From positions 4,832,001-4,896,000 of the forward strand of contig OZ251518.1 of the NCBI GenBank assembly GCA_965242965.1: 64,000 nt of DNA. Reading direction: 5' to 3'. The position numbers and the translations under genes were made by a program. The notes beneath the pieces are model-generated. The model saw nothing but the letters and a program-made list of their open reading frames with translations, did not search any database and was not told the DNA's origin. The DNA comes from Candidatus Poribacteria bacterium. Lineage in GTDB: Bacteria > Poribacteria > WGA-4E > WGA-3G. Of the stretch, positions 301 to 57,109 are shown piece after piece; the first letter of the stretch is position 1; every line of letters starts with the position of its first letter.

Positions 301-1095
301 CTACCGGGTATTTTTGATGGCACCCCACGTCACCGCGAGTTTGCCATGGGGCTCAACGGCGAGTCCTGTATCAGACTTGAAGTTCTGATTGACTTCCGCT
401 TCGTCCAGCACCCTGTCATAGATGCTGAATTCGTCAATGATGCCTTCAAACACGCCGAATTCGCCATCGGCTCTGCCGTCTATCCCGATGAAGACGTGAT
501 TTTCAAAGTCTTCCTCAGGGAATAGCGCGAGATCCAGCACCGCCTCCGTGGTGGCTTTGCCATCGACGAAGAATTGGACTTTGCTGTCCGCCGGCATCCC
601 CGCAACAGCGATATAGTGCCATTTATTGTCGTCAATGGTGTTCCCGCCGTCTTCGGCATTGCCTACCCAGCCGGTGTCAAGGTTAAGGATACCATTGCGC
701 ACCCACAAGGTTTTCGGGCCCTTGTCATCAGTCCCAGGTCCGCCGGTTTTGGAGAAAATTACGCCGGGACCGGAACTCCCGGTTTTTATCCAAGCCGCCC
801 ACGTAAAATCGGCGTTGAAATCGAAGGTTTCTGGATTCTCGATTTCAATGAAATTGGCATCGTTTGCATCAAATTCAAGGGCATCGCCGATTTTCCCCGC
901 GACCTTTTTCAAATTACCGTTGATGGTGCCGGCGCGATTGCCGGTGCCATCTTTCACGGTTTTGTCCTGAATGTTGTGAGCATCAAAACTCCAATAGCCG
1001 ATGAGTCCATCCTCGACGAGCTGCGCGGGGAGGTTTGATGCGAGTGTTAAACTGATGGTGACCAGCACCAGCATACATAGAGCACTTTTAAGCAT
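301..1095 (-). CDS. Secreted LamG/concanavalin A-like domain protein
   Basis: Signal peptide; 'GYWSFD...GKIGDALEFD...WHYIAV...FEGIIDEFSIYDRVL' LamG_3 pattern; C-terminal AVEPHGKLAVTWGAIK motif. Confidence 0.9.
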   Translation of the reverse strand: MLKSALCMLVLVTISLTLASNLPAQLVEDGLIGYWSFDAHNIQDKTVKDGTGNRAGTINGNLKKVAGKIGDALEFDANDANFIEIENPETFDFNADFTWAAWIKTGSSGPGVIFSKTGGPGTDDKGPKTLWVRNGILNLDTGWVGNAEDGGNTIDDNKWHYIAVAGMPADSKVQFFVDGKATTEAVLDLALFPEEDFENHVFIGIDGRADGEFGVFEGIIDEFSIYDRVLDEAEVNQNFKSDTGLAVEPHGKLAVTWGAIKNTR

Positions 1096-1159
1096 AATAA
1101 ATCTCCTTTGATGGTAGTGTTGATACGAAACATATTTTCGTAGGTGCTACAAAAAAACG

Positions 1160-1730: not shown

Positions 1731-1800
1731 GAAACACACATCGTGTCGACACGAAACATATTTTCATAGGCGCGCTTGCAAAGCACACCTATCGCTTCGC

Positions 1801-1968
1801 CTAGCCTTTCACAATTGTCCTGAGAATCAGAAACGCGCCGCCAACGATAATAACGAAAAACGCTGCACCGATGACGAGCGAGAGAAGCACCATCACGACT
1901 TCAAAGACGATCAGGCAGATAAAAAAGAGAATGATAATGCAGAGAATCGCAAGTAAAATTATTCCCAT
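1801..1968 (-). CDS. Small hydrophobic membrane protein (55 aa)
   Basis: Not in the ORF track. ATG 1968 to TAG 1801: MGIILLAILCIIILFFICLIVFEVVMVLLSLVIGAAFFVIIVGGAFLILRTIVKG; AGAAGGGA RBS; starts 31 bp after the upstream gene. Confidence 0.7.
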   Translation of the reverse strand: MGIILLAILCIIILFFICLIVFEVVMVLLSLVIGAAFFVIIVGGAFLILRTIVKG

Positions 1969-1999
1969 TTCGAGAATCCCCTTCTGGTGGGCGCGTGTC

Positions 2000-2755
2000 T
2001 CAATAACGCGTCTTGAGTTCGCCCCAAACCGCCGGCAACTTACCTGCCGGCTGGACTGGCAGGATTACCTCTGGGTCGCAGTCGTCCGGCGTATCGCAAA
2101 TCGCCCAGTTGTCAAAAGAAACGACGGTGAGCGCGGGCGCGCCTCTGCTTGAGCCGCCGTTCAACCCAACTTGCCCACTCTCGGGCCTGACATTCCCGAA
2201 GTCCAGTTTGCTTTCCAGCAGCCACGCTTTGGGCTCAGGTTTCCCTTCTTCCCAGATTTTACCGGCGAATCCCTTGTCCGAAATCTCGGCTTTCATCCAA
2301 TACCACTCGCCGGTTTTTATCGAACCGAAAGGCGGTTCGGTGTCATTCTGCTTCCATGCGAGATGGTCATTTAGGAATTCCATGTTGTTGAGAAAATGGT
2401 GAATGAGGAATGCGTATCCGGAAGCGTCGCCCGGGTCAAGCCGAAAGCCGAGCCCGCAGCGCGCCAGGTCTCCATCACCCCAATCATCAACACGAATCAT
2501 GACGAGGCCGGTGTGCGGTTCTTCAAAACCACCGTTAAGCACGAGGTAAGTGTGGTCTCCTGGGGACTCATCGGTCTGGGTGATAACGCCCCCCTTTTCT
2601 ACCCAGTCGCCTTCGTGATTTTTGAATTCATACTTCGCGTCGATTTTCCCATCCTCAAAATCGTCGAGGTATAACACCTCGGCGTGAGTGCTGACACTCC
2701 AAGCGAAAAGGGTGAGGCACGCTAGCATGATAGCCGAAATTTTTATCGTAATCAT
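2000..2755 (-). CDS. Secreted hypothetical protein, probable beta-sandwich/ConA-like fold
   Basis: Signal peptide, 'LYLDDFEDG' start, 'VSFDNWAI' end, C-terminal PVQPAGKLPAVWGELK motif; GGAGGTG RBS. Confidence 0.85.
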   Translation of the reverse strand: MITIKISAIMLACLTLFAWSVSTHAEVLYLDDFEDGKIDAKYEFKNHEGDWVEKGGVITQTDESPGDHTYLVLNGGFEEPHTGLVMIRVDDWGDGDLARCGLGFRLDPGDASGYAFLIHHFLNNMEFLNDHLAWKQNDTEPPFGSIKTGEWYWMKAEISDKGFAGKIWEEGKPEPKAWLLESKLDFGNVRPESGQVGLNGGSSRGAPALTVVSFDNWAICDTPDDCDPEVILPVQPAGKLPAVWGELKTRY

Positions 2756-3399: not shown

Positions 3400-3406
3400 A
3401 GTCTAC

Positions 3407-4246
3407 CTATTGCGCGCTTTTGAGTTTGCCCCAGGTCGTCGCCATTTTTCCGGCGGCATCGACATCCAATGCCCCTTCAATGCCCTCGCCGAGTTTTTGG
3501 ACATCATCATCGGAGAGTGCCACGTTGAAGACGACGACTTCGTCGATGATACCTTCCCATTGGCACCGCATGCCGCAGCCCGGGTCTGCACCGATGTAGA
3601 CTGCTTCGGGTGATGCCCACGGCGGTTCTTTGGCATCTTCGCTGTTTTGGAGTTTGCCGTTCACGTAAACGTGAAGTTGCGCGCCGTCCCAGACTCCGAC
3701 GAGATGCACCCACTCCTTCGCGGAGACTTCATCGCCGAGGACTTCTAGTTTTGCACCGTTGTTGCCGGCGCGGATGTGAAACGCGGCATTCGTGGTATTT
3801 TCGCCGTTCTCATGGGCACCCGTGCCGAGCAAAAACTGGGACCAGGTTGAACATCCGAGTCCTTTCCAGATGACGCACTTGCCCGTCGGGTCTGCCGCTG
3901 CGTAGACCCAGGCGTGGATAGAGAACCCTTCGGCTTCCTTGAAGTCCAGCGCGGCGAGCGTCTTCTCTTCGCCTTTAATGCCGAGTTTAACCCACGTATC
4001 TTGTCCGTTAAACTCTAAGCCGCCACCGAATTTGCCCTTGGCCCACTGCAGATCACCGACGAATTCGCCATCGGTTCCGTTTCCGGAGAGGTCTGTGACA
4101 GTTTTGCCTTTTCCTTCCTCAAACGTCCACATCCCGGCGATAGTTTTTTCGTCTAGGTTGGCACGACTCACCGTTGCTACCGCCAAACAGAGGGTGATGA
4201 CAGCGATGGCGGCGAGCACGCGATTCATATCGGTTTTGAAAAACAT
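3407..4246 (-). CDS. Secreted LamG-like domain protein
   Basis: Signal peptide; 'WTFEEGKG...GKFGGGLEFNG...WVHLVGVWDG...IIDEVVVFNVALS'; C-terminal DVDAAGKMATTWGKLK. Confidence 0.9.
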   Translation of the reverse strand: MFFKTDMNRVLAAIAVITLCLAVATVSRANLDEKTIAGMWTFEEGKGKTVTDLSGNGTDGEFVGDLQWAKGKFGGGLEFNGQDTWVKLGIKGEEKTLAALDFKEAEGFSIHAWVYAAADPTGKCVIWKGLGCSTWSQFLLGTGAHENGENTTNAAFHIRAGNNGAKLEVLGDEVSAKEWVHLVGVWDGAQLHVYVNGKLQNSEDAKEPPWASPEAVYIGADPGCGMRCQWEGIIDEVVVFNVALSDDDVQKLGEGIEGALDVDAAGKMATTWGKLKSAQ

Positions 4247-4321: not shown

Positions 4322-5077
4322 TTATTTTTTCAGACTTCCCCATGTGACAGCGAGTTTCTGTTTCGCGTCTACGGCGAGGGTTGCCTCAAAACCATCGTTC
4401 ATCACAGTCTGGACATCGTCAGCATCCAAGACGGTGTTGAAGATAATGAACTCGTCGATGAGCCCTTCCCATTGCCGCTGGTTATCCCATGCGCCAATAA
4501 AAGCCGAGTCAAGGATACCGGGGTTCCCACCCCAGTCGTTTTCGACATCAAGTTCGCCGTTAATGAAAAAGCGGATTTTCTTTTCCTTCGCGCTGTAAGC
4601 GGTGGCAATATGCACCCATTCGTCCATCTGATCGCCGGCTAACTTATAGAGCGCGAACGTATCGTTTCCGCCGGGGTTACCGTTAATGGAGAACTCAACC
4701 CTTGTGTCAGGGTGAAGTTGATAGTGGATGTCGCCTGCCTTCCAGCCAGCGTTGTTGAAAAAGACGCGCCAGTCCGCTTCTCTCCCCGTGGATTTCACCC
4801 AGTGTGCGAAGGTGATTTCCTCAAATTCGCCAAGTGCCTGAGGGATGGTAACCCACTCATCTTTGCCGTTGAGTTCGATTGCTTGGCCGATTTTGCCATC
4901 AACAAATTTTCCACCTTCCAGTTCGCCGTCAAATCCGTTGCCGGAAATGTCGTCGGCATTGCCGTCAAAAACCCACGCTGCGGCAATCATATCCGCCGTG
5001 ATTTCGGCGAAACTGGGCATGCTGAAAGCCGCCATGAGCAGTAAACCGAGGGTTATGATGATAACTTTTGATTTCAA
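4322..5077 (-). CDS. Secreted LamG-like domain protein
   Basis: TTG start with GGAGG RBS; LamG motifs 'WVFDGNA...GKIGQAIELNG...WVHIATAY...LIDEFIIFN'; C-terminal AVDAKQKLAVTWGSLKK. Confidence 0.9.
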   Translation of the reverse strand: MKSKVIIITLGLLLMAAFSMPSFAEITADMIAAAWVFDGNADDISGNGFDGELEGGKFVDGKIGQAIELNGKDEWVTIPQALGEFEEITFAHWVKSTGREADWRVFFNNAGWKAGDIHYQLHPDTRVEFSINGNPGGNDTFALYKLAGDQMDEWVHIATAYSAKEKKIRFFINGELDVENDWGGNPGILDSAFIGAWDNQRQWEGLIDEFIIFNTVLDADDVQTVMNDGFEATLAVDAKQKLAVTWGSLKK

Positions 5078-7974: not shown

Positions 7975-10900
7975 TTAATCCCGCAGCTTAACTGCACCGA
8001 ACGTCGTTAACATCCGATTGGAAGCCGAAACCGGACCCGGCAAAAACCGCGTCACTAACGGCACAGGCCCGCCGTCAAACGAAACTTCCTCGATCTGATA
8101 GAAATACTCGACACCCGGCTTTGCCGACGTATCTGTAAAGGTATACGCCTGACGTTCGCCTGTAGTGCCAGCACCGGCGATCAGCGCAGGATTCAATAAC
8201 TTAAATCCACTATCGCGCTTCTCACTCCGACGCAGGTTAAAGCCAGCGTTGTCGACCTCGGACTCTGTTGTCCAAGTCAACACAACCGAACCTGACTCCT
8301 CGCGCTTCACCGAGAAACTCGATAACTCAACGGGCAGCGGACCGCCGGCGCGATATCCCGGGGTGCCGATGTCCTCAGCATGTCCCCAGTGGAGCTCCTT
8401 GTTAGCCACGAAACGCTTGACGTTCGATGCCAACACCCAACCCCCGCGCGCCATGCCATCTTCCGCAACCGACGTGCCTTTCGTATAACGACGGATTAAC
8501 GAACTCCGAACGCCATCTTCCGGACTCACCGGTAATGCCCACGACGGCGCATCATCGGTGCGACGATTCCCATCCGTATTGCCGACCTCGTCTATCTTCG
8601 TCCCATTCCGATCCGAGAGCTTCAGATAGAAACCGACAGCACTCAGGAACGTATCCTGCGGCTTCTTGATACGCAGATTCTTATCGTGCAGCTTGAAGAG
8701 GTTGTAAACCCGATCCGCCGGTAACCGCGCCGACGATGACGCACGCGCATCACCCGATACAATCAGCAACGTCTGATTCGGCTGAATGATTTTCTCACCC
8801 AACGTCAACGTCACAATCGGTCTGCCGACGAGATCCTCCGATTTCACATTCTGGAGCTCCAATCTCCACCGATTCAGATTGATTGCCTCGGTTTTGGATT
8901 TGTTATACAACTCCACCCACTGCGGCAGTTTGCCACCACCCGAATCAAACATGACCTCGCTGATGGTGATACTCCCCTGCGGCGTGGATGCCTCCGTTTT
9001 CAACGCACCATTCGGATAGCCCGGCGTGCCAGCAGTCGCCGCGGACTTCGAGACAGCTCTGTCATAGCCGATACCCGTAAACGCCGCCTCCGCCCAAGCA
9101 TCCTTGTGGTAACCCACAATATCCGCTTTGGCGCGCTGCCAGACTTTGCCGGAACCAAGCGCATCTTCCGTATCGCCACCCGGTGCCTCACGCACTTGCA
9201 AGGGCCAGACATGCGTATCATAGTTCCCCGTCTGATCACGAATAAACGCATCCGTGCCACTGCCACCGCCACCGGCGACATCCACGAACGCCTCATTCAT
9301 GCCGAGTTTCTCCTTCGATTTCCGAAGAATCAACAGGAACTTCCCATCATCCGGCAACGAAAGCCCGGAATTGGCGTAATACAGATGCGATGAACCCTTG
9401 CTCTCCACCGCCGAGGTAGCGGCGTTATCACCACCGGCGAGAAGATTGCCATCTGCCGTCGGATCGCTGTTGGTTATTAGCAACAAACCATTCGCCGGGA
9501 CACTGACATCCGTAAACACGATCAGCGACGTATCCTTCTTCTCACCATTCTGCACGACGCTGAGCTCCCAGTCTTTCAAAGAGACTGCCGAACCCGTAAC
9601 ATTGCGGAACTCCAACCAGTCGTTGGAATCACCACTGCCATTGCCGAGCTCGTTGAAAACGACCGGCGAACGCGGCACACCCGAAGCATCCGCTTTTGTT
9701 TCCTCTTCTTCTGTCGGCGGCAAATACACGATACCTTGAATCTGAACGCTACGTTTTAGCGCAGTTGGCCGCGCGAACGCAGTCGTCAAGGAGACGCGCT
9801 TATTATCACCGACTGTAATCTGCGGAGAACCCGCAGCCGGCTGAGACGGCGCAGCAGTGGAAGCAGGAGGTGCCTCACCCGCCGCACGAGCCGGCGGATC
9901 ACTCCCTACAATACGGACAGACTCACTCACAAAGGTGGTGCCCTTCGGAATCGCAACACCCTCTTCGGATTTTAACGATACCTCCGAAGCAAAGTCAACC
10001 GCACCGACTTCATACTCAAACGTCACTCTCGTCGAATTCACGTCTTCCTCACGCGCCCACACGGCATGCCGCTCATTCGCCGGAACACGCTCGCCCAAGT
10101 AAATCGTAATATACGGCTTCGCTGTCCCCTCGTAAGTCACACCATCTTCCTCGAAGACAATCGAGAATTCCAAGGAATTGTTAGCACTGCCGAAGACAAC
10201 CGGCTCCGTTTCCGGCACACTCTCACCCGGACGATTCACCGGCACGGTGAGAGACAGCGTGGAACCTGCCGAAGCAACCGGGTTGCCCGGGATCGCCGCA
10301 TCTGTCAAACCTGCCGGATCTAGCGTTAAGGTGACATCACCACTCGCGCCCGCGGCTACGGTGACAGGCAGCGTCCACGTCTCCGATTCATAAGCCGTCG
10401 GCTCACCCGGACGCGTTGCGGTGCCGATAGTGACACCCGCGACATCCTCTTCTACGGAAATTTTGCTAGGCAGTGCGGCGGCACTCGCTTCACTCAACGG
10501 GCCGCTAAAGGTAATTTCCACGTTGAAATCACCGGTTACTGTCCCCGCCCCACCGGCACGGCGCATTTGCACCGTTCGCGGTGTCTGAGCAATAGGTGCC
10601 TCCAATCGCTGAGGCGGATGCAGAGGCTGATACGCCAAATTACCGTCCGCCTCGCGTAAGAAGTGTTGAAAGCTCAGACTTCTAATAGCGTAGGGCTCCG
10701 CGTCCCCAGGATTCTTAAGAGTTGCCCCTGGCCTGACTCCCCCGTGCTCTACTTGTTGAATCCCAGCCTCGCGCAACTTGTCTCTCGATTTTGAACCAGG
10801 CACCCAAACAAAGGACTGCTGTGGGAAGATATTGTTATCTACAGGCCGCCAGTGAAGCATTGCGCTTGAATCCTCGTCATAAGGAAGTCTTACGACACCC

Positions 10901-13020
10901 TCCAAGGCTTCCCTCGTAAAACGTTGGTTATCCCCAGGCGGAGAGATACTCAGCCTTACTTCATTAAGAGTCACTTCACCATCCCTGTCATCCGGTTGGA
11001 TAGGATAAGCGAACTCCACTGTTGTAGAATCCTCTGCCGCGTCATAAACCGCAGAAAGCCATTCTGCTTTGAGTTCTACGCTACGTAGTTCTCCGTCGTA
11101 AGTCACGAAGTCGTCGAAAACCACGAAGAGCTCCGGCTTTTTTAAATGCGATGTCGCGCTGTGAAACTCTGGCCCGGTAATCTCGCCATGGAATATTACC
11201 TGAAAAATAATATTCGACCCGGCACCATACGCGAAGGGTTCCGCCGCAAATCCATAAGACTTCACGATAACCGTATCGGTGAACCATGGGTGCTGGATTC
11301 GATCCGCCAACGTCCGAAGGACATCGAAATCCTCAGCGACGAATTCCCGATTGGTTAATTCCCATGGATTCCCGAATCCATTTCCATCGGGGTCCTTTAC
11401 AAAGAGCTGCTCTTTCTGCGGATGGAGAGTCAGCCACTTTAAATTCGTCAACCCTTCAAGGGGGCTAAGATCTGCAACACGGTTTTCGCGAAGATCTAGC
11501 CGCTCTAGCGCAGTCAATCCCGCAAGCGACGAGATATCCACATATTGACAATTGTGGAGATTTAACCACTTTAACTCCTTCAAATTTCCCAAGAAGCTAG
11601 GGGCCGCGGAAAGATCGTAGTCAAAAGAATAATGACCTTGGATACTCAACGATTTCAATTTCGTCAATCGCCCAATAATCTCATAGGGTTTCGCACCAAC
11701 AGTGTCAATGTCAATAGCATCATAGACTAACACCTCTAAGTTCGGGCAGTAGGTGTCCAGTCCAGTTAAATTCATGTAGTCGTAGCTACTGATATCCAGC
11801 GCGTAGACCTGCTTCAAAAGCTCTTCTGTCAAAGGCTCAGTCCGGACGAGATTCAGATAATAATTTCTGACGGTTGAGGAGGGTTCTCCAGCAAACCGGT
11901 TTGGAGAACCATCTATGTTAGCAGGACTCTCTCCTGACGCAGGACCAAAGAAGTCACGGAGATCTACAAATACTTCTGGAGTTGCCCCCCTTTGGCGGAA
12001 TTCTTCCACGGCCCTTATGATATCCCTATTGTTCAGGAGGAATGGGGTAAGAGCAGCTTTCAACACGCCTCTGAGATCGGAATCCGGGATGGCGGCAATT
12101 TTCCCTAGACTAGAGTAGAGGGTAACGCCTTCCGCCATGAGGACCTTAGCGACGACATCGTAAAATCCAGGATAATAGGATAAGATCTCACCAACATTGG
12201 TCACACCCGGATATAGTTCCCGAAATATCTGTGTCATAGGCCGCCTGTTCTCGAACGACTCACGATCGGGGAAATATCCCGTGAGCAGAGCATCCAGTTC
12301 CGACACGGTGGCCTGAACTCTGGCACCAAAATTATTGGCACCTAACAGCACCACATCTCCACTCCCCACCCCGCTGTTTCGCAAGAGCGGCGAGAAGTCC
12401 GAGATTTTGTTGTTGTTGATTGCCAAAATTTCCAGTGCCGTCATACTTTCCACGGCATTGATGTTGACGATTCCGTTGTGCGCGACGTTTAACACTCTCA
12501 GATTGGTGAAACCTGTCGCTAAAGGGTTCAATTTAGCGTTGGCATCAGAGGGACCCTCGAAATAGTCGTCGTCAGTATTAGGCGTATTATCATTCCCATT
12601 ATTTCTATTCAAGGTCTCCTCAAGCGAATTGTTCACCAAAATCAGCACTTCCAGTGTTGTTAAACCTGACAACGCAGAGATGTTAGTAATCTTGTTGTTG
12701 CCCAGGTCCAAGTGTTCCAGTGCCCCTGCGGCCCCTAGGCCGGCAAGATTTTCGATTTTTGCAGTATCGGCTTTCCCGTAACCGTTCGCATCAAGCCGGG
12801 TGAGTTGTGATAAATGCCCCGAGTCAATGCCAGCCGTTAGCACTCTATTGCTTACGCCTCCGACGTTTTCCGCATTAAGTGCAGCATTAATTGCCTGATG
12901 GAGGTTAGTATCGGTGAAGGTCAGCTGCGCAGCAACCTGCGGTGTGCTTACCCACATCACAACTCCGAGTATCAGGCAGCACAAGGCGGCGTTGATAATA
13001 AAGTTTTTATGAAGGTTCAT
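7975..13020 (-). CDS. Giant secreted protein: internalin-like LRRs, Ig-like region, two lamin-tail-like domains, PVELSSF domain
   Basis: Signal peptide; LRR 'LEHLDLGNNKITNISALSGLTTLEVLIL'; 'VVFNELG...DWLEFRN' and 'ITISEVM...QWVELYN' LTD-like motifs; 'LPVELSSF...WTTESEVDNAGFNL'. Start placed at ATG 13020 (GAGGA RBS); the ORF is open from 13032. Confidence 0.88.
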   Translation of the reverse strand: MNLHKNFIINAALCCLILGVVMWVSTPQVAAQLTFTDTNLHQAINAALNAENVGGVSNRVLTAGIDSGHLSQLTRLDANGYGKADTAKIENLAGLGAAGALEHLDLGNNKITNISALSGLTTLEVLILVNNSLEETLNRNNGNDNTPNTDDDYFEGPSDANAKLNPLATGFTNLRVLNVAHNGIVNINAVESMTALEILAINNNKISDFSPLLRNSGVGSGDVVLLGANNFGARVQATVSELDALLTGYFPDRESFENRRPMTQIFRELYPGVTNVGEILSYYPGFYDVVAKVLMAEGVTLYSSLGKIAAIPDSDLRGVLKAALTPFLLNNRDIIRAVEEFRQRGATPEVFVDLRDFFGPASGESPANIDGSPNRFAGEPSSTVRNYYLNLVRTEPLTEELLKQVYALDISSYDYMNLTGLDTYCPNLEVLVYDAIDIDTVGAKPYEIIGRLTKLKSLSIQGHYSFDYDLSAAPSFLGNLKELKWLNLHNCQYVDISSLAGLTALERLDLRENRVADLSPLEGLTNLKWLTLHPQKEQLFVKDPDGNGFGNPWELTNREFVAEDFDVLRTLADRIQHPWFTDTVIVKSYGFAAEPFAYGAGSNIIFQVIFHGEITGPEFHSATSHLKKPELFVVFDDFVTYDGELRSVELKAEWLSAVYDAAEDSTTVEFAYPIQPDDRDGEVTLNEVRLSISPPGDNQRFTREALEGVVRLPYDEDSSAMLHWRPVDNNIFPQQSFVWVPGSKSRDKLREAGIQQVEHGGVRPGATLKNPGDAEPYAIRSLSFQHFLREADGNLAYQPLHPPQRLEAPIAQTPRTVQMRRAGGAGTVTGDFNVEITFSGPLSEASAAALPSKISVEEDVAGVTIGTATRPGEPTAYESETWTLPVTVAAGASGDVTLTLDPAGLTDAAIPGNPVASAGSTLSLTVPVNRPGESVPETEPVVFGSANNSLEFSIVFEEDGVTYEGTAKPYITIYLGERVPANERHAVWAREEDVNSTRVTFEYEVGAVDFASEVSLKSEEGVAIPKGTTFVSESVRIVGSDPPARAAGEAPPASTAAPSQPAAGSPQITVGDNKRVSLTTAFARPTALKRSVQIQGIVYLPPTEEEETKADASGVPRSPVVFNELGNGSGDSNDWLEFRNVTGSAVSLKDWELSVVQNGEKKDTSLIVFTDVSVPANGLLLITNSDPTADGNLLAGGDNAATSAVESKGSSHLYYANSGLSLPDDGKFLLILRKSKEKLGMNEAFVDVAGGGGSGTDAFIRDQTGNYDTHVWPLQVREAPGGDTEDALGSGKVWQRAKADIVGYHKDAWAEAAFTGIGYDRAVSKSAATAGTPGYPNGALKTEASTPQGSITISEVMFDSGGGKLPQWVELYNKSKTEAINLNRWRLELQNVKSEDLVGRPIVTLTLGEKIIQPNQTLLIVSGDARASSSARLPADRVYNLFKLHDKNLRIKKPQDTFLSAVGFYLKLSDRNGTKIDEVGNTDGNRRTDDAPSWALPVSPEDGVRSSLIRRYTKGTSVAEDGMARGGWVLASNVKRFVANKELHWGHAEDIGTPGYRAGGPLPVELSSFSVKREESGSVVLTWTTESEVDNAGFNLRRSEKRDSGFKLLNPALIAGAGTTGERQAYTFTDTSAKPGVEYFYQIEEVSFDGGPVPLVTRFLPGPVSASNRMLTTFGAVKLRD

Positions 13021-13160
13021 TGCTTTCCTCATTTAAACGAGTTTCGCGCTCTCTTGTGAGTTTCCTCTTGGCATTGAGAGCGGTTTGAATTGAAGCGCGC
13101 TGTTTTTCGCGCGATACGTGCCGCTGCCACGTTGGCAAGCGGATTTCTACAATATACTCA

Positions 13161-13359: not shown

Positions 13360-13850
13360 CCGTAGGGCTTGGGCCCTCGCATGCCACACGCGCATGCGAG
13401 AGGGTTTCCCTCGCCGTCGTTCAGGCACCCTAGACCCTCTCTCTTCTCCCTTCTGTAGGTCAAGAGCGCCTGCTCTTGACCCGTTCGGGAGCAGGCGCTC
13501 CCGAACTACAGATGGTGGGGGGAATCGTCCGCGTAATTTGAGGATCGCGGGGGACAGGCCCCCGCGCTACGGTGGAAAAACGGGTCTGGTGCGCGGAACG
13601 CTCGCGGGGGACAGGCCCCCGCGCTACGGTAAAAAAACGGGTCTGGTGCGCGGAACGCTCGCGGGGGACAGGCCCCCGCGCTACGGTTATCCGGGCCGTC
13701 TTCGCGTTAACGAATAAAAAACGCCACCCTTACCGTAGGGCGAGGGCCTGTCCCTCGCCATCGTTCATGCCCCAGATCCCTCCCCTCTTCTCTGTAGGTC
13801 AGGATCGCCTGATCCTGACCCGTTTGTGATCAGGCGATCACAAACTACAG
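13360..13850. repeat. REP-like cluster
   Basis: A, B and nested units; the last B unit supplies the stop codon of the adjacent CDS. Confidence 0.88.
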
Positions 13851-14378
13851 AACCTCGCTATCTAATGTATTTTTCATACGTTCATTTTCAGCGCGCAAGG
13901 CATCAATCTCGGATTGCTTTTCCGCTAACTCCTCTTGCTGTGCGCCGAGTTTTTCGTCGCCTTCCTTGCGTTTATCCCATTGCTGTTTGAGGAGTGCGAG
14001 GAGCATCGTCAGGAGGCCTGTTACCAAGGCGACTAGCAAGAATTGCACGAAGGAGAGCTGCCGAGTGATGCCGCGGATTTCTGCCGAGGTCTTCTCTTCC
14101 GATGCCGTGACCGTGAGGTTAATGTATTCCTTGAGGTCCGCTTCGGTCTTGATGAGTCTCGTTGTCAACGCTGCGATGTCGGTTTTCATGACAGCGATGT
14201 CGGTTTTCATGACGGCAATATCCGCCTTCACGGTGACGAGTTCCTCATTTATTTTGTCCACTTTGGCTGTCAGTCGTGCGAACCCGGTGAGCAGGGTTTG
14301 CGCCTCTTCCCGGGTTAGTTGTCCAAACGCTGGAGATGCAATCAGCATCCCGATGAGTAAACATAAAATCCATTTCAT
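13845..14378 (-). CDS. Coiled-coil membrane protein, paralog 1
   Basis: Signal peptide MKWILCLLIGMLIASPAFG, (T/A)DIAVMK heptads, TM helix FVQFLLVALVTGLLTMLLALL, C-terminal coiled coil; GGAGG RBS. Confidence 0.85.
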   Translation of the reverse strand: MKWILCLLIGMLIASPAFGQLTREEAQTLLTGFARLTAKVDKINEELVTVKADIAVMKTDIAVMKTDIAALTTRLIKTEADLKEYINLTVTASEEKTSAEIRGITRQLSFVQFLLVALVTGLLTMLLALLKQQWDKRKEGDEKLGAQQEELAEKQSEIDALRAENERMKNTLDSEVL

Positions 14379-14399
14379 TTTGATTTCCTCCGTTGTTGT

Positions 14400-14466
14400 G
14401 ACATCGTCAAAAGTGACGATGTCTTGGTTATGATTTATTTTAACAGAAGTGTAGGTTTTTTGTCAA
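14400..14466 (-). promoter_or_regulatory. Promoter plus leader inverted repeat, conserved before all three paralogs
   Basis: TTGACA-18-TAAAAT (14466-14437) and GACATCGTCA-AAAG-TGACGATGTC (14400-14423); near-copies at ~15326-15390 and ~16280-16344. Confidence 0.65.
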
Positions 14467-14499
14467 GGTTATTTTGGTTTCGGAAAAAATAACGCCCGG

Positions 14500-14750
14500 G
14501 TTACCGTAGGGCGAGGGCCTGTCCCTCGCCATCGTTCATGCACCCTAGACCCTCCCCTCTTCTCTGTAGGTCAGGATCGCCTGATCCTGACCCGTTTGTG
14601 ATCAGGCGATCACAAACTACAGAGGGGGGGGAATCGTTCGCGCAATCCAACGCTCGCGGGGGACAGGCCCCCGCGCTACGGTTATCCGGGCCGTCTCCCT
14701 TTACCGTAGGGCGAGGGCCTGTCCCTCGCCATCGTTCATGCACCAGACCC
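14500..14750. repeat. REP-like cluster between paralogs 1 and 2
   Basis: A-B-B-A-A arrangement, near-identical to 15450-15700. Confidence 0.88.
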
Positions 14751-14751
14751 G

Positions 14752-15303
14752 CTATCCGTGTTCGCGCTCGACCTCATTTTCAAGTCTGCCGCCACTGGGC
14801 GAGACAAGGCCTGATGTATTTTTGATGCGATCAACTTCAGCGCGCAAGGCATCAATTTCGGATTGCTTTTCCGCTAACTCTTTTTGCTGCTCCGTTAACT
14901 CCTCTTGCTGTGCGCCGAGTTTTTCGTCGCCTTCCTTCCGTTTATCCCATTGCTGTTTGAGCAGCGCGAGCAGCACCGTCAAGAGCCCTGTTACCAAGGC
15001 GACTAGCAAGAGTTGCACGAAGGAGAGCTGCCGAGTGACACCGCGGATTTCTGCCGAGGTCTTCTCTTCCGATGCCGTGATGTCATTTTTCATGACGGCG
15101 ATGTCGGTTTTCATGACGGCGATGTCGGCTTTCATGACGGCGATGTCAGTTTTCACCGTGACGAGTTCCTCATTTATTTTGTCCACTTTGGCTGTCAGTT
15201 GTGCGAACCCGGTGAGCAGGGTTTGCGCCTCGTCCCGGGTTAGTTGTCCAACCGCTGGAGATGCAATCAGCATCCCGATGAGTAACCCTAAAATCCATTT
15301 CAT
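14752..15303 (-). CDS. Coiled-coil membrane protein, paralog 2
   Basis: Start reassigned to MKWILG at 15303 by homology and AGGAGG RBS. Confidence 0.85.
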   Translation of the reverse strand: MKWILGLLIGMLIASPAVGQLTRDEAQTLLTGFAQLTAKVDKINEELVTVKTDIAVMKADIAVMKTDIAVMKNDITASEEKTSAEIRGVTRQLSFVQLLLVALVTGLLTVLLALLKQQWDKRKEGDEKLGAQQEELTEQQKELAEKQSEIDALRAEVDRIKNTSGLVSPSGGRLENEVEREHG

Positions 15304-15449
15304 TTTGAATGTCCTCCTTTGTTGTGGCATCGTCAAAAGACGATGTCTTGGTTATGATTTATTTTAACAGAAGTATAGGTTTTTTGTCAAGGTTATTTTG
15401 GTTTCGGAAAAAATAACGCCCGCGCGTTAACGAACAAAAAACGCCCGGG

Positions 15450-15700
15450 TTACCGTAGGGCGAGGGCCTGTCCCTCGCCATCGTTCATGCACCCTAGACC
15501 CTCTCTCTCTCTCTGTAGGTCAGGATCGCCTGATCCTGACCCGTTTGTGATCAGGCGATCACAAACTACAGAGGGGGGGAATCGTTCGCGCAATCCAACG
15601 CTCGCGGGGGACAGGCCCCCGCGCTACGGTTGTCCGGGCCGTCTCTCCTCCATCGTAGGGCGAGGGCCTGTCCCTCGCCATCGTTCATGCACCAGATCCG
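15450..15700. repeat. REP-like cluster between paralogs 2 and 3
   Basis: Same unit order and similar linkers as 14500-14750. Confidence 0.88.
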
Positions 15701-16258
15701 CTATCCGTGTTCGCGCTCGCCCTCATTTTCAAGCCTGCCGCCACTGGGCGTGACAAGGCCTGATGTATTTTTGATGCGTTCAACTTCGGCGCGCAAGGCA
15801 TCAATTTCGGATTGCTTTTCCGCTAACGCTTTTTGCTGTGCGCCGAGTTTTTCGTCGCCTTCCTTTCGTTTATCCCATTGCTGTTTGAGGAGTGCGAGGA
15901 GCATCGTCAAGAGCCCTGTTACCAAGGCGACTAGCAAGAATTGCACGAAAGAGAGTTGTCGAGTGATGCCGCGGATTTCTGCCGAGGTCTTCTCTTCCGA
16001 TGCCGTGACTCTGGAGTCAACGTATTCCTTGAGTTCGGTTTTGGTGTCGCGGAGTTCCGTTTTCAACACCGCGATGTCGTTTTTCATGACAGCGATGTCG
16101 GTTTCCACCGTGGCGAGTTTTTCATTTATTTTGTCCAGTTTGGCGAGGATGCGCGCGTCGGATGCTGCGGCAATCTGTTCGACCTCTGCGCGTGTCACTT
16201 GCGCCATTGCGGGGGATGCAATCAGCATCCCGATGAGTAACCCTAAAATCCATTTCAT
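15701..16258 (-). CDS. Coiled-coil membrane protein, paralog 3
   Basis: Same signal peptide, TM and tail; divergent N-terminal head (QVTRAEVEQIAAASDARILAKL). Confidence 0.85.
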   Translation of the reverse strand: MKWILGLLIGMLIASPAMAQVTRAEVEQIAAASDARILAKLDKINEKLATVETDIAVMKNDIAVLKTELRDTKTELKEYVDSRVTASEEKTSAEIRGITRQLSFVQFLLVALVTGLLTMLLALLKQQWDKRKEGDEKLGAQQKALAEKQSEIDALRAEVERIKNTSGLVTPSGGRLENEGEREHG

Positions 16259-42608: not shown

Positions 42609-43400
42609 CTACCGCTTCAAATCGCCCCACGTCGTTGCAAGTTTACCGCGCACGGAAACGACGAGCGTCTCGTTGATAATCTGCTGGATATCTGCCGCCG
42701 CAAGCGCATAGTTGGCAAGCATCATCTCATCAAGAAGACCTTGGAAAAAACGCGGGCAACACCCGTTATTTTCACCGCCAAAACGCAAAGCTCTGTCCGG
42801 CATGCTGCGACCGGGGCCCTTCTGTGCGATAGGCTTCCCACTAGGCTCACCGTTGAGATAGAACTGCGCCTCACTCCCATCCCATACCAGCGCGACGTGC
42901 GTCCACGCTTTGGCTTTCACCTTACCGTCAGAAATGTGGTAACCCGGCGCAGTGGTATCGTAGAAATAGTAGGCGAGCTGCCCCGCGCCCGGTTCAATCT
43001 GCAAGTAATAGGTATTTTTGTAGAAGATAGTGAACTTGTTTTCCTGTCCGCCCGCGGGGAGTTCGTCAGGATAAATCCACGCCATCATCGTGATGGCTTC
43101 GTCAATGTCCACCTCATCGGAGTGAGGCACTTCCACAAAAGCGGCTTTGCCGACAGAACCTGCCATCTGCAAGGCGGTTCCAGAGATGCCTTCAGCCCAC
43201 TTGACATCGCCGTTGAGTTCGCCGACTAACGCAGCTGTTGCATCCTGTGTCTCTTTCCCTTTGCCTTCATCGAAGTGCCAGACGTATATCTGTTCCCCTA
43301 ATTGCTTGACGTTGCCTTTTCCACCCGCCGCTAAACCGAACTGGCAGATGGATAAACTCATCACGGAGACGATGAGCATTTGCGTTAGATAGGTTTTCAT
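42609..43400 (-). CDS. Secreted LamG-like domain protein
   Basis: Start at MKTYLT (AGGAGG RBS); 'WHFDEGKG...ITMMAWIYP...WTHVALVWDG...FQGLLDE'; C-terminal VSVRGKLATTWGDLKR. Confidence 0.9.
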   Translation of the reverse strand: MKTYLTQMLIVSVMSLSICQFGLAAGGKGNVKQLGEQIYVWHFDEGKGKETQDATAALVGELNGDVKWAEGISGTALQMAGSVGKAAFVEVPHSDEVDIDEAITMMAWIYPDELPAGGQENKFTIFYKNTYYLQIEPGAGQLAYYFYDTTAPGYHISDGKVKAKAWTHVALVWDGSEAQFYLNGEPSGKPIAQKGPGRSMPDRALRFGGENNGCCPRFFQGLLDEMMLANYALAAADIQQIINETLVVSVRGKLATTWGDLKR

Positions 43401-43511
43401 GCGTGTCCTCCTTTTGAGACGAGAGGGCTCTCCTACAATCGGGACAGGCACTAGGCAGATGGGTAGGCGCGGTTTCAAACCGCGCCTACGGAATTCGTGC
43501 TGTTGAGTGCC

Positions 43512-44279
43512 TTACCGTTTCAAATCGCCCCACGTTATCGCCAACTTGCCACCGGGGGATACGGCAAAGTAAACGCCTTTGTCCAAATCTTGATTAATCT
43601 CCTCGGCGGTGAGGGCGCGGTTGTAGATGGCAACTTCGTCAACATAACCAACCATGCCGGGAAGGTTTGTCTGCGCCTTGCCGATACGGAAAACTACCTC
43701 GATGCTGTTAATCTTACCGTTCGGCGGCTTGAATTCGACATCTAACTCGCCATCAATATATTGACGAATCATGTCACCGTCGTAGGTAGAAGCGACGTGA
43801 TGCCATTCCTCTAACGCCGGCTTGATAGTCTGCTTGTTTCGCGAACCTTGCCAGCCACCGATGTTAATCCATGTCTCAATCTGCGGCGCGCCTGTAAATT
43901 CCGCACTCCATTGGAGACAATAGCCGCCGACGTTCGCCGCGCTCCTACGTCCCATCAGATTGGAATCTCCCTGCGATTCTTCAGGGAAAAACCACGCTTG
44001 AATCGTCAGTTCATCGGTGATGTCTAATTCCGGCACCGCCGCTACTTCGACAAATGTTTCAGAATCTTCGAGATAGACGCAACCGCCGATTTTGCCGTCT
44101 TTTGACAAAACCGCGCCTTCAAGGGTGCCCTCAAGGTTATTCCCACTGACATCTTTGACGGTGCCGCCAGCATCGTCGTCAAACGGGAAGTAGAGCATGA
44201 GTGCCTTGTCATCGTTGAGTGCCCACGCGCTGGCAACGCTTAAGGCAACGATGAGGAAAACCGTGATAGCTGATTTCAT
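43512..44279 (-). CDS. Secreted LamG-like domain protein
   Basis: Start at MKSAIT; 'LYFPFDD...WHHVASTYDG...VDEVAIYNRALT'; C-terminal AVSPGGKLAITWGDLKR. Confidence 0.9.
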   Translation of the reverse strand: MKSAITVFLIVALSVASAWALNDDKALMLYFPFDDDAGGTVKDVSGNNLEGTLEGAVLSKDGKIGGCVYLEDSETFVEVAAVPELDITDELTIQAWFFPEESQGDSNLMGRRSAANVGGYCLQWSAEFTGAPQIETWINIGGWQGSRNKQTIKPALEEWHHVASTYDGDMIRQYIDGELDVEFKPPNGKINSIEVVFRIGKAQTNLPGMVGYVDEVAIYNRALTAEEINQDLDKGVYFAVSPGGKLAITWGDLKR

Positions 44280-44300
44280 GATGTGTCCTCTTAGTTGAGC

Positions 44301-44650
44301 ATGGCGGGGGACAGGCCCCCGCCCTACGTTCATCGGGATGTTTGCGATGGCGGAGGACAAGTCCCCGCGCGCCGTTCATCGGGATGTTTGCGATGGCGGA
44401 GGACAAGTCCCCGCGCGCCATTCATCGGGATGTTTGTGATGGCGGGGGAACAGGCCCCGCGCGCCATTCATCGGGATGTTTGCGATGGCGGAGGACAAAC
44501 CCCCGCGTGCCGTTCATCGAGATGTTTGTGATGGCGGAGGACAAACCCCCGCGCGCCGTTCATCGGGATGTTTGCGATGGCGGAGGACAAACCCCCGCGC
44601 GCCATTCATCGGGATTTTTGCGAGAGCGGGGGAACAGGCCCCCGCGCTAC
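44301..44650 (-). repeat. Eight-copy tandem array, 46-bp period, REP-derived
   Basis: Units start at 44301, 44347, 44393, 44439, 44485, 44531, 44577, 44623. Confidence 0.9.
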
Positions 44651-52765: not shown

Positions 52766-52774
52766 ACATTGCGT

Positions 52775-55700
52775 TTACTCCTGCTGCTTGACCTCACCGA
52801 ACGTCGTCAGCATCCGATTCGACGCAGAAACAGGACCCGGCAACAACCGCGTCACTAACGTCGCCGGCTTACCATCAAACGCAACTTCTTCGATCTGATA
52901 ATAATATTCAATACCCGGCTTCGCCGACGTATCGGTAAACGTGTAGGTTTGACGTTCACCCGTCGTGCCGGCACCGGCGATTAAGGCAGGATTCAAGAGC
53001 GTGAAACCGCTATCGCGCTTTTCGCTGCGGCGCAAGTTAAAGCCCGCGTTGTCCACTTCCGACTCGGTTGTCCATGTCAAAACGACAGCACCGGTTTCAT
53101 TGCGCGTCATTGAGAAACTGGATAACTCCACCGGCAAGGCACCGCCTTCACGATGCCCCGGCGTGCCGATGTCATCGGCATGGCCGTAGTGGAGAGACTC
53201 ATCAAACGGCTTGATGCGCGCTGCCAACACCCAACTCGCACGCTTTCGTCCGGGCAGCGCAACACCTTTATCGTAACGCCGAATGATGGAACTCCGCGAA
53301 CCTTCCTCAAAACTCAGCGGTAATGCCCAGGCCGGGGCATCGTCCGAACGCCGATCGCTGTCCCTATTCCCGACTTCGTCGACGAGATTCCCGTTCCTAT
53401 CGGAGAGTTGCAGGTAGAATCCTTCGGTACTCAAGAAGGTATCCCGCGCACGCTTGATGCGCAGATTCTTATCATGCAGGGCCAACAGGTCGTAGACCCT
53501 GTCCGCTGGCAGATACGAATCCGACGAGGCACGCGCCGGGCCCGCGACGATGAGCAACGTTTGATTCGGTTGAATCACTTTCTCTCCTAACGTCAACGTG
53601 ACAATCGGGCGGCCGACTAAATCTTCAGAATCCACGTTCTGAATCTCCAACTCCCAACGGTTGAGATTGATAGCATCCGTTTTGGAGTTGTTGTAGAGTT
53701 CAATCCATTGCGGCAGTGTGCGCCCGCCGGAATCCACCATGATTTCGCTGAAGGTGATGCTGCCTTTCGGCGTGGCAGACCCAGGTTTTACTGCACCATT
53801 CGGATAGCCCGGTGTGCCTGCGGTTGCAGCCGACTCCGAGACCTTCCTATCATAACCGAGTCCTGTGAACGCCGATTCTGCCCAGGCATCTTTATGATAC
53901 CCGACGATATCCGCCTTGGCGCGCTGCCAGACTTTGCCCGAGCCGAGGGCATCTTCGGTGTCACCACCGGGAGCCTGCAACACTTGCAGGGGCCAGACAT
54001 GCGTGTCATAATCGCCTGTCTGCTCACGGACAAACGCATCCGTGTCACTGCCGCCGCCACCGGCGACATCGACGAACGCTTCGTTCAAGCCGCGTTTATC
54101 CTTCGCGTTGCGGAGAATCAAGAGGAATTTTCCATCATCTGGCAGGGACAACCCGGCGTTGACGAGATACAGGTGCGGCGAGCCTTTCTTCTCTACATCA
54201 GCAGTGCTGATGTCATCACCACCGGCAAGAGACGTTTTATCCGGTGACGTATTCACAAGCAGCAACAGCCCGTTTGCTGGCACACTCACATCTTCCACAA
54301 AAGCAATCAGGGACGTATCTTCCTTCTTCCCATCTTGCACGATGCTGAGCTCCCAGTCTTTTAACGAGACTGCATCACCGGTGACATTGCGAAGTTCTAG
54401 CCAGTCATCAGCATCGCCGCTACCGTTGCCGAGTTCGTTGAAAACAACGGGACTGCGAGGCACATCAGAGGTCGGCGACTTCGGATCTGACGTTTCCGGA
54501 AGGTAAATCACCGGCACCACTGGTGTATCCGAGACTACCGGCGAAACTTCACGGCCAGACGTATCTTCCAACGGCGATGGATCTGCCGCCAGCACCGTTT
54601 TTGGCGCAGTGCCAGATGCCGCCGCAGGCTCCGCTGTCCCAACCTGCCGCTCAGACGGTGCAGTCAGTGGTCCTGACAGCAACATCGTCTTGTCCGGGAC
54701 GAGGATCTTGACAGAGGGGACACGCACTGCCTCTGCCACCGTGTCCGTTGCTGCTACCGTATACGCGAATGTCACTTTCGTCGAATTCGTGTCTTCGGCG
54801 CGTTGCCATGTTGCATGCCGGGCATTTGCCGGCACCTCTTCGCCGAGATAAAGCGTCACATACGGCGGGTTTTCCCCTTCATAACGCAGATTCTGCCTGT
54901 CATACGTCACCTCAACCTCAATCTTATCGCCGGCGGTATAGGCACCGGCGGGAGGCGCGACAATCTCCGGCGTTTCCACTACGCGCAACGGATTATCCAC
55001 TGACACCGTCAACACATTCGATGCCAGACTGGCGTTGCCGGCGATATCCTGTGTGGCACCTGCCGGCAATGAGATGGCGACATTCCCCTGAAAACCGAGG
55101 GCAGGCGTAATCGTCGCTTTGTAGACGAGGAACAACGCACTGTTCTTCGCACTACCGGGCGGATAGTGCAATGCATCATAGGTGCGGAGAGGACTAGGAT
55201 CAAACTCACCTGGCCACCTCCGGATATAGTGCTGCCTCTTCCAATCGTTCGCGTTATAATCGCGAAGGGTCTCAGTCCAGTGCCCGGGAGGGGGCCACTG
55301 CTCGCTAGAACGATGATCGAGCCCCACATACGTCAACTCAACCTGCCATGCCTCACGCGTGACACCGGTGCCGGTAATGCTGACATCCGCGGGTTCAAAA
55401 CTCTCACCCACTTCGTCTGCTAGGACAGTCTTTATATGGTAATTGGTGTCAAACCGGTTGAAAAAACGGAATTCCACATCAAACGCCGCTGTCTGCGTTT
55501 CGCTTTCCGTAACATCACGATCGAAATCTGTCACGGGTGCCTCGGTATACGCAGCATCCAAGTTGGCGACTGCATTCCGTTTATCATCGGTGTGCGTTTC
55601 GCCGTTCTTTATCAGCCCAGGAACCCACACTGTCGTCGGGAGGGTATCTACGAGGAAAAGCGGCATTTTAGAGGTCTCATCGCCCAGGCGCGCTCGGACA

Positions 55701-57109
55701 GCTGCATCGCCAGACCAGAGGATGTGGTTGTAATGAAATCGTTCTGCTTTGCCGCCATAAGTCCATCCCTCGGTGTTGGTTTCGCCGATAAAATACGCCA
55801 CCAGCGCGGATTGGGTGTCTACCCCACCGCCAGTGAACCGGTTTCCCGAAGAATCGATTATCCGCCTCGCGTTCGCGTCCCTGTAGTTATGCGCAAAAGC
55901 GGAGTAAAGCTGGAGATCGCTGAATCTGTAGTCTCCCGCCTCCACCGTATACGCAAAGACGAGCGTATTGCTCCCTGAACCGGAATGATAGTCTGCACGT
56001 TTACCGCCGAGCGTGCTGCCACCTAATGCCAGCGTCGGTGGATCTCCAAGGTCCACCGTCACCTCCTCATTAAACTTCACGGAGATATAGATGGTGTCGC
56101 CTTCGCCATAGTAATAGACCTGCCGACTCTCGGCGAGTGCAGGCTTGGAGTAGCCATCTTCGCCCACGTGAGGATAAAGCGACGTGTAATCGTCGCCCCG
56201 TTGAAGATCATGCGCGATGGAGTCAAGGCGAATCTCGTGCAAGCGTGACTTCCCACCCCGGGGGGCGTGAGGTATATCCTCGCCACTACTGTTGACGAAC
56301 CGAACCGGATGGTCCTTCCATGCGGCTAACTCCGGCGCGATAGCCTCTATCTTGGGGTAGTAGATGGTGGTGCCTGCTGGGAGAGTCAGACTGCTAGCAG
56401 AAGTCCAAGAAGAACCCCCAGCCTGATCACCAAGATATCCCGCCTGAAAGGGAGTGTTACCAGGCGTGAACCACTCGCCACCAGAGTCCCGGTCACCAGG
56501 CCTCACCCTATAGAGGTAGAGCATGGTGAATTTGGCAAAGTTGATTTCGCCCTGAGGTAAATTTAACTCTTGATCCGAAAAGTTGTGGTTAAGGTAGTGA
56601 CGCGAGTAAAAATAACTACCATCAGCGGTGTTTTTTATGCCGCCATCACCCCAATCCGCTATATCAAGGCTCGTCCCCCAGTGGACGCGATGCACTGGGC
56701 CTACCCGAATCGCAATCCCGAGGATATCACCCGCGACAAGAGTAGTCGTTTCCGCGTTTGAAGCGTCTATGCGAGTGGCCCCCTCAGGGTTGCCATCGGC
56801 ATCGATTGGAACGTAGCCATCAACTACACCCTCTCTCGCATGAGCGGGAATGGGCGTAGTGTAGCCGCTATCAGGCCAGGCGTAGGCAAAACCCGTTGGT
56901 GGCCAAACACCAGAGTCTGTTTGACGGTGATAGGGACTAGCACCGTTTGACTTAGCCTTAAGCGCGCTCTCCGGAACGTGGTAAATCCGTAGCCATTCAA
57001 TTGAGGGAGCTGCCTCGGCTCCCTTTGGGAGAGCGAGCCCGAAGACAACCCCGGCAAGCATCAGGAAAACGAAGAATCTCGCGTAGGAAAACAGCGATTT
57101 CCTTGTCAT
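52775..57109 (-). CDS. Giant secreted protein: unique N-terminus, Ig-like region, two lamin-tail-like domains, PVELSSF domain (paralog of 7975-13020)
   Basis: Signal peptide from MTRKSLF (GGAGG RBS); C-terminal ~560 aa closely similar to the other giant protein. Confidence 0.88.
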   Translation of the reverse strand: MTRKSLFSYARFFVFLMLAGVVFGLALPKGAEAAPSIEWLRIYHVPESALKAKSNGASPYHRQTDSGVWPPTGFAYAWPDSGYTTPIPAHAREGVVDGYVPIDADGNPEGATRIDASNAETTTLVAGDILGIAIRVGPVHRVHWGTSLDIADWGDGGIKNTADGSYFYSRHYLNHNFSDQELNLPQGEINFAKFTMLYLYRVRPGDRDSGGEWFTPGNTPFQAGYLGDQAGGSSWTSASSLTLPAGTTIYYPKIEAIAPELAAWKDHPVRFVNSSGEDIPHAPRGGKSRLHEIRLDSIAHDLQRGDDYTSLYPHVGEDGYSKPALAESRQVYYYGEGDTIYISVKFNEEVTVDLGDPPTLALGGSTLGGKRADYHSGSGSNTLVFAYTVEAGDYRFSDLQLYSAFAHNYRDANARRIIDSSGNRFTGGGVDTQSALVAYFIGETNTEGWTYGGKAERFHYNHILWSGDAAVRARLGDETSKMPLFLVDTLPTTVWVPGLIKNGETHTDDKRNAVANLDAAYTEAPVTDFDRDVTESETQTAAFDVEFRFFNRFDTNYHIKTVLADEVGESFEPADVSITGTGVTREAWQVELTYVGLDHRSSEQWPPPGHWTETLRDYNANDWKRQHYIRRWPGEFDPSPLRTYDALHYPPGSAKNSALFLVYKATITPALGFQGNVAISLPAGATQDIAGNASLASNVLTVSVDNPLRVVETPEIVAPPAGAYTAGDKIEVEVTYDRQNLRYEGENPPYVTLYLGEEVPANARHATWQRAEDTNSTKVTFAYTVAATDTVAEAVRVPSVKILVPDKTMLLSGPLTAPSERQVGTAEPAAASGTAPKTVLAADPSPLEDTSGREVSPVVSDTPVVPVIYLPETSDPKSPTSDVPRSPVVFNELGNGSGDADDWLELRNVTGDAVSLKDWELSIVQDGKKEDTSLIAFVEDVSVPANGLLLLVNTSPDKTSLAGGDDISTADVEKKGSPHLYLVNAGLSLPDDGKFLLILRNAKDKRGLNEAFVDVAGGGGSDTDAFVREQTGDYDTHVWPLQVLQAPGGDTEDALGSGKVWQRAKADIVGYHKDAWAESAFTGLGYDRKVSESAATAGTPGYPNGAVKPGSATPKGSITFSEIMVDSGGRTLPQWIELYNNSKTDAINLNRWELEIQNVDSEDLVGRPIVTLTLGEKVIQPNQTLLIVAGPARASSDSYLPADRVYDLLALHDKNLRIKRARDTFLSTEGFYLQLSDRNGNLVDEVGNRDSDRRSDDAPAWALPLSFEEGSRSSIIRRYDKGVALPGRKRASWVLAARIKPFDESLHYGHADDIGTPGHREGGALPVELSSFSMTRNETGAVVLTWTTESEVDNAGFNLRRSEKRDSGFTLLNPALIAGAGTTGERQTYTFTDTSAKPGIEYYYQIEEVAFDGKPATLVTRLLPGPVSASNRMLTTFGEVKQQE

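Follow-up and report, generated by a model that had tools for sequence, protein, structure and literature searches.

The 64-kb window analysed here (64,000 nucleotides of contig OZ251518.1 from a Candidatus Poribacteria bacterium) encodes eight exported proteins that end in a related short peptide, referred to below as the tail. The original prediction placed such tails on eight genes, 1 to 3 residues ahead of the stop codon, and proposed a lineage-specific secretion or anchoring tag. All eight tails are present on the minus strand where they had been placed (Table 1); 3, 3, 3, 1, 3, 1, 1 and 3 residues follow the conserved lysine, in coordinate order. All eight carriers begin with a basic stretch that gives way to a hydrophobic one and then to an AxA-type segment, as judged by eye and by hydropathy, in agreement with the predicted signal peptides. 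The passengers differ in fold as was also claimed: five are LamG proteins (PF13385), one has no family, one combines LRR with lamin-tail domain (LTD) and one combines LTD with Big_12. A Pfam/NCBIfam scan of the eight window proteins found no model covering the tail.

Table 1 Tail-bearing genes and associated features, numbered from the first nucleotide of the window
Feature	Position	Strand	Evidence
Exported LamG (PF13385) protein, 264 aa; tail 301-363	301..1095	-	Open reading frame (ORF), Pfam
Tail LAVEPHGKLAVTWGAIK + NTR + stop	301..363	-	
Exported protein, no Pfam family, 251 aa; tail 2000-2062	2000..2755	-	ORF, Pfam
Tail LPVQPAGKLPAVWGELK + TRY + stop	2000..2062	-	
Exported LamG (PF13385) protein, 279 aa; tail 3407-3469	3407..4246	-	ORF, Pfam
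Exported LamG (PF13385) protein, 251 aa; tail 4322-4378	4322..5077	-	ORF, Pfam
Giant exported LRR + LTD protein, 1685 aa; tail (F variant) 7975-8037	7975..13032	-	ORF, Pfam
Pre-tail domain, ~100 aa, of the 1685-aa LRR/LTD giant	8038..8337	-	
Exported LamG (PF13385) protein, 289 aa as longest ORF, start probably 26 codons further in; tail 42609-42665	42609..43478	-	
Exported LamG (PF13385) protein, 282 aa as longest ORF, start probably 27 codons further in; tail 43512-43568	43512..44360	-	
Giant exported LTD + Ig-like (Big_12, no LRR) protein, 1444 aa; tail (F variant) 52775-52837	52775..57109	-	
Pre-tail domain of the 1444-aa giant, same as 8038-8337	52838..53137	-	

The tail unit spans 17 residues, x-[PAS]-V-[ESD]-[PA]-x-x-K-L-x-T-T-[WF]-G-x-[LVI]-K, and is followed by 1 to 9 mostly basic residues. 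A matrix seeded with the eight window tails was used to scan the whole genome, covering all 112,986 stop-to-stop frames no shorter than 30 aa. At scores of 14 or above, 146 matches lie within 10 residues of a stop and only 4 elsewhere. Scores between 12 and 20 form an empty gap among frames of at least 100 aa. The clustering of matches at stops, together with the empty gap below them, argues that the tail is not a chance occurrence. Two of the four non-terminal matches sit 11 and 23 residues from the stop; the other two are 96 residues from the end, directly before the C-terminal domain (CTD) that marks T9SS (type IX secretion system) cargo. In ten further tails an extra residue is inserted or the spacer diverges (12 pattern matches, 2 discarded by eye as false). 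The genome thereby holds 158 stand-alone tails in 30 single-linkage sequence families, the largest with 57, 37 and 16 members; three more divergent tails were left out of this count. Conservation over the 146 terminal tails is high: valine is present in 143, Trp/Phe in 144, Gly/Ala in 140 and the final lysine in 143, with arginine in the other 3. This final Lys/Arg is never the last residue, as the trailing residues are found in all 146.

By a heuristic rule, an N-terminal hydrophobic segment is found in 153 of the 158 tail genes, compared with 1120 of the 3382 other genes; among CTD genes the figure is 33 of 38. A stricter heuristic requiring an ATG start gave 134/158 against 923/3420. The tail is thus not equally frequent at internal sites or on cytoplasmic proteins; it is terminal or precedes a CTD, on proteins that nearly all have signal-peptide-like starts. 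No Tat motif was found in any of the 158 tail proteins. A microcompartment encapsulation peptide was considered and ruled out, since the carriers have signal peptides.

The data support the description of the tail as a C-terminal tag that is modular and is attached to exported proteins with many different folds; we infer a role in secretion or anchoring. The possibility that it forms an integral strand of the LamG fold does not agree with the data: other folds carry the tail, an internal LamG copy lacks it, and a close paralogue diverges at this point. The LamG protein at C1:4344269 (C1 positions refer to the genome) bears a tail and is 86% identical over 218 residues to a 925-aa LamG-WD40-cohesin-CTD protein at C1:2330138. 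Their alignment breaks at the conserved valine of the tail; the tail begins where the passenger domain ends. In addition to the eight window proteins, 28 representatives of the tail families were scanned against Pfam. Passengers among these are PD40, CBM4_9, CBM9, F5/8, NPCBM, HmuY, DUF4960, 3-keto-disaccharide hydrolase and LamG, with 16 having no family. Passenger domains are shared with tail proteins by 34 proteins that have no counted tail; a CTD forms the end of 13 of these, dockerin-like repeats the end of 3, and a divergent tail the end of another 3. All 37 giants share a domain of about 100 residues directly before the tail. A single further copy of it occurs in the genome, in a 7081-aa paralogue, where dockerin-like repeats and a CTD take the place of the tail. 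A search for relatives of this domain outside the phylum listed 120 matches at 56-95% identity, of which the two named are from Poribacteria; Atlas matches, with a score of 0.84, serve as leads only. The domain may also stand ahead of CTDs in Bacteroidota. Two giant tail-family genes (C1:5231199-5235984 and C1:4467807-4470227) are apparently broken into two frames, and the tail lies on the downstream piece, which has no signal peptide.

The tail was found in each of the 121 Poribacteria genomes searched, which represent eight families. Each genome has between 17 and 67 scored matches (67 being the scoring ceiling), drawn from 42 to 362 candidates. A profile search of 1.84 billion proteins returned 617 matches at E 0.001, and 144 of the best 150 end within 8 residues of the protein terminus. 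The predicted lineage specificity has to be qualified: the tail is phylum-wide in Poribacteria, and a shorter relative exists outside the phylum. The pattern T-[ST]-W-G-x-[ILV]-K-x-L-[YF]-x-stop was used to scan metagenomes and located this short tail on at least 122 stretches. From the 79 loci listed, 77 ORFs were read, at G+C 0.36-0.76; many begin with what looks like a signal peptide. The flanks yielded another 13 tails. At positions outside the search pattern the short tails favour [TV] (57 of 74), [PA] (52) and [VT] (55). The same x-[PA]-V element is present as in the long tail, five residues nearer the Trp. Profiles of the short and long tails match at 95.6% over 18 columns, a figure that is partly circular. 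Two of the ten short-tail clusters looked up are named Candidatus Eisenbacteria; an annotated SprA and a related tail both occur in this group, on different records. One metagenome protein (L235:1504-2262, minus strand) ends in two tandem short tails.

The relationship to the CTD is seen most directly in fusions. Using the two source-genome fusions as queries against five genomes (five families), 30 loci were recovered and 27 complete CTD starts read; 14 further tail-CTD fusions were identified, with examples in all five genomes. In 15 of the resulting 16 fusions the conserved Lys/Arg precedes the NYPNPF motif at which the CTD starts by six residues. Ordinary CTDs of the source genome have lysine at this position in 17 of 35 cases. 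At the level of sequence, the stand-alone tail reads like a fusion halted just ahead of the CTD. The Trp position is occupied by Leu in 10/16 fusions versus 2/146 stand-alone tails, an excess that is biased because the fusion query itself had Leu there. In an AlphaFold model of the fusion built from 16 sequences the CTD is folded (confidence, pLDDT, around 89), and the structure nearest to it is FlgD, with PorU, PorZ and a chain bound to the translocon coming next (E 4e-4 to 1e-2). The original prediction had named the T9SS CTD among known C-terminal tags. The tail is not a CTD; it is not independent of one either, being the segment that precedes the CTD in fusions.

No secretion machinery had been evident in the window, and this holds for the window itself; the genome, however, encodes SprA, PorV-family barrels and PorU-like peptidases. 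The SprA protein has 2232 aa and matches its model with E 7e-47 and 159.5 bits (below the curated cut-off of 200). There are about 14 PorV/PorQ-like barrels, four of them above cut-off, with 211 bits against a cut-off of 90 for the PorV family. Three PorU-like C25 peptidases (C1:92233, 2333983 and 3236303) score 408, 371 and 347 bits, just under the cut-off of 420; each has the His and Cys of the dyad and a CTD of its own. TIGR04183, the CTD model, matches 41 times. No match to TIGR03519 (PorP/SprF) was found in this genome or in control genomes. SprA, the PorV family and C25 are each present in 41/41 Poribacteria genomes, with at least two C25 matches in 40 of the 41 and three in most genomes of the source family. 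In Kamke et al. 2014 (PMC3909097), CTDs were described in Poribacteria, structural type IX genes were not seen, and the pathway was left open; SprA, PorV-family and PorU-like genes are now known from all 41 genomes.

Some of these components have unusual architectures. Two PorV/PorQ-like barrels (C1:897908-899683 and C1:4400691-4402541) are fused to a SPOR domain and a lytic transglycosylase domain, and some Poribacteria SprA proteins (P0457, P0453 and related) have a LysM domain. A 2581-aa Ig-repeat protein (C1:2978789-2988009) has a CTD-like FlgD_ig domain near its N-terminus and adjoins a PorV-like barrel; it is a candidate for a receptor or scaffold at the surface. Some CTD proteins (C1:1822356-1823030, C1:2676625-2677476 and others) bear cohesin and dockerin modules, which suggests a cellulosome-like surface assembly.

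A natural comparison is offered by the haem-binding protein HmuY. The locus at C1:1565146-1568763 consists of a gene for a TonB-dependent receptor and, after it, two HmuY genes. HmuY was matched in 56 of the 121 genomes and the best 30 loci were read. In these, the copy with a lipoprotein-type start is without a tail in 30/30 (27 by rule, 3 by eye). A second copy is present in 23 of the 30 and has both a signal-peptidase-I start and a tail in every case (22 without a flagged Cys). More generally the tail is nearly absent from lipoprotein-like genes, with 3 weak cases out of 158. HmuY of P. gingivalis is reported as a surface-exposed lipoprotein which is also released in soluble form (PMC2873494). 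The simplest reading of the gene pair is that the tail would send unlipidated HmuY outside or anchor it there, because a soluble periplasmic protein needs no extra tag.

We favour the view that the tail is a short, CTD-less type IX export or anchoring signal of Poribacteria, and put the probability of this at about one half. Tail proteins would first be exported by Sec. The tail would then be bound by a type IX component, either a PorV-family barrel or a PorU-like peptidase, and the protein would cross the outer membrane through SprA to end up anchored on, or released from, the surface. The tail could be a free-standing form of the linker ahead of the CTD, or be derived from it, with the Trp supplying the binding that the CTD supplies in fused forms. 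Gingipains are specific for Arg and Lys. Since the Lys of the tail is nearly invariant and never terminal, a C25 enzyme of the gingipain family may cleave or transpeptidate the protein there. Short type IX signals are conceivable because the last 22 residues of a CTD are reported to suffice for secretion of GFP (PMC10202324). With roughly 160 tail proteins and some 41 CTD proteins in the genome, the tail would be the commoner address. A broader version of the proposal would make a 12-17-residue 'TWG' peptide, in place of a folded domain, the main type IX cargo signal in Poribacteria and further uncultured phyla. The peptide would be the detached processing element of the CTD, and a PorU paralogue dedicated to it would serve as a Lys-specific sortase. 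We regard this extension as possible though doubtful.

Several observations weigh against a type IX signal. To our knowledge every known type IX cargo has a folded CTD. In the AlphaFold model the tail is unpacked (pLDDT around 50), and only 2 of the approximately 41 CTD proteins in the source genome carry a tail at all. The HmuY loci are kin and may trace to one duplication, and the tailed HmuY could work in the periplasm. Co-occurrence within the phylum is uninformative, as no genome lacks the tail. Analysis of 121 tail loci, with 91 close same-strand neighbours, revealed no family dedicated to tail genes. GldK, the only model scanned from the PorK/L/M/N and PorZ set, gave no full-length match to GldK/PorK in the genome, with partial matches at 76 places. 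The short sufficient piece of the CTD is its far end and not the linker (PMC10202324). The PorU site of P. gingivalis, given in the same source as T/E/D/N followed by G/A/S, occurs before the Val in just 6/157 tails and 8/77 short relatives; PorU has elsewhere been described as cutting independently of sequence (PMC4804311).

The tail might instead be a docking peptide, a dockerin-like handle for a surface scaffold or a carrier (perhaps itself a type IX cargo), in which case it would be neither cut nor read by the translocon. The tail does fill the slot in which other proteins have dockerin-like repeats before a CTD, it is retained in fusions that already own a CTD, and it places a conserved Trp on a basic amphipathic stretch. 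The genome encodes cohesin and dockerin proteins, and the Ig-repeat protein with its N-terminal CTD-like domain next to a PorV-like barrel is a candidate partner. We nonetheless think docking rather unlikely: stand-alone tail proteins would still have to pass the outer membrane, a scaffold bearing repeats of a receptor domain was not identified, and the tail is always terminal or before a CTD, never internal. A little less probable still is an envelope anchor with no export step. Here the basic amphipathic tail would bind membrane lipid, lipopolysaccharide or peptidoglycan, replacing a lipid anchor and retaining soluble proteins on one periplasmic face or in vesicles. The 158 tails have a mean net charge of +2.8 and a hydrophobic moment that peaks near 110 degrees; 16 tail proteins are TolB-like propellers; and both the alternation with lipidation on HmuY and the near-absence from lipoprotein-like genes fit such an anchor. 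Its hydrophobic face is short, however, and the residue-specific conservation of the V, K and W/F positions is more like protein recognition. The fixed register to the CTD would be left unexplained, and the passengers are LRR/LTD giants and glycan-binding modules that are also found on CTD proteins.

That tail proteins outnumber CTD proteins by about 4:1 and for the most part lack the PorU-type site would suit another route or a tail-specific protease (a non-type-IX exporter, a subtilase or quality control), with the CTD fusions being secondary. Short C-terminal signals with no transmembrane (TM) segment exist for other exporters. We judge this improbable, given that no candidate gene travels with the tail genes and that the register before the CTD is fixed across five families. 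Finally, a tail with no function, simply a structural LamG end spread by duplication and recombination, would account for the 57 of 158 tails in one LamG-centred cluster and the 37 in one cluster of giants. It would not account for an internal LamG copy without the tail, for the tails on PD40, CBM4_9, CBM9, F5/8, NPCBM, HmuY, DUF4960 and unclassified folds, or for conservation in all 121 genomes, and we give it hardly any credence.

Two other features of the window were recorded. Three tandem paralogues of 177-194 aa, without a convincing Pfam family, lie at 13845-16258 on the minus strand; each has a signal peptide, a DIAVMK-repeat coiled coil and a second hydrophobic segment, and ends in a charged coiled coil. 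The 16-base word GAGGGCCTGTCCCTCG (or its reverse complement), part of a REP-like intergenic repeat, has 57 copies in the window and about 2150 in the genome, and it is the source of many spurious ORFs.

The tail is real, phylum-wide and uncatalogued. No description of it was found in the freely available article texts searched, including a preprint on sorting signals (bioRxiv 10.1101/2023.06.07.544157); Tables S8-S9 of PMC3909097 may list carriers. Were the tail a type IX signal, about 160 genes would share one unrecognised surface route, among them the majority of the lectin-like and LRR proteins to which a mediating role in sponge symbiosis has been ascribed as a proposal. A signal of peptide size would revise the view that type IX cargo needs a folded CTD and would provide a rule by which the surface proteins of several uncultured phyla could be annotated. 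If reconstituted, it would be a very small display tag.

Among known systems the closest in behaviour is the type A CTD of the T9SS (TIGR04183, PF18962, and the FlgD_ig form PF13860), which is served by the PorV shuttle and the PorU sortase. Like the tail, it is C-terminal and found on Sec-exported proteins of many folds, including the same passengers; the tail abuts it in fusions, and SprA, PorV-family and PorU-like genes are in the same genomes. The differences are equally clear. The CTD is a seven-stranded Ig-like domain of 70-90 residues, whereas the tail has 17 residues and no predicted fold. None of the eight window proteins matches TIGR04183 or PF18962, fused forms match only by way of their CTD, and the P. 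gingivalis cleavage motif is not a feature of the tail. Type B (TIGR04131) and type C CTDs are reported to be alternatives that serve a single translocon, every signal having a barrel of its own (PMC12618676), and the approximately 14 PorV/PorQ-like barrels in this genome could divide such work. Those signals, with their PorP/SprF shuttles, are folded domains, however, and no pairing of tail genes with a barrel gene is seen, apart from a single divergent neighbour.

The LPXTG/sortase, PEP-CTERM/exosortase, GlyGly-CTERM and MYXO-CTERM signals resemble the tail in having many copies, a C-terminal location, signature residues, a basic end and a signal peptide on the carrier. One of their defining parts is a hydrophobic TM segment (bioRxiv 10.1101/2023.06.07.544157), which the tail does not have: over the last 45 residues of the 158 tail proteins the maximum 19-residue hydropathy is 1.49, with a mean of 0.36. 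The view that the tail has no TM helix is thus borne out, and with no TM segment between motif and basic cluster it is not a signal of the sortase or exosortase type, as had been argued. The dockerin (PF00404) is also a small module placed between passenger and CTD in the source genome. The tail is far shorter, has no EF-hand repeats and no known cognate receptor, and PF00404 matched none of the stand-alone tail proteins scanned (the eight window proteins and 28 representatives). Nor is the tail an element of LamG (PF13385), being neither restricted to LamG nor present with every LamG copy. The tail belongs to neither the CTD nor the tripartite-signal families, yet on the best reading works most like a CTD.

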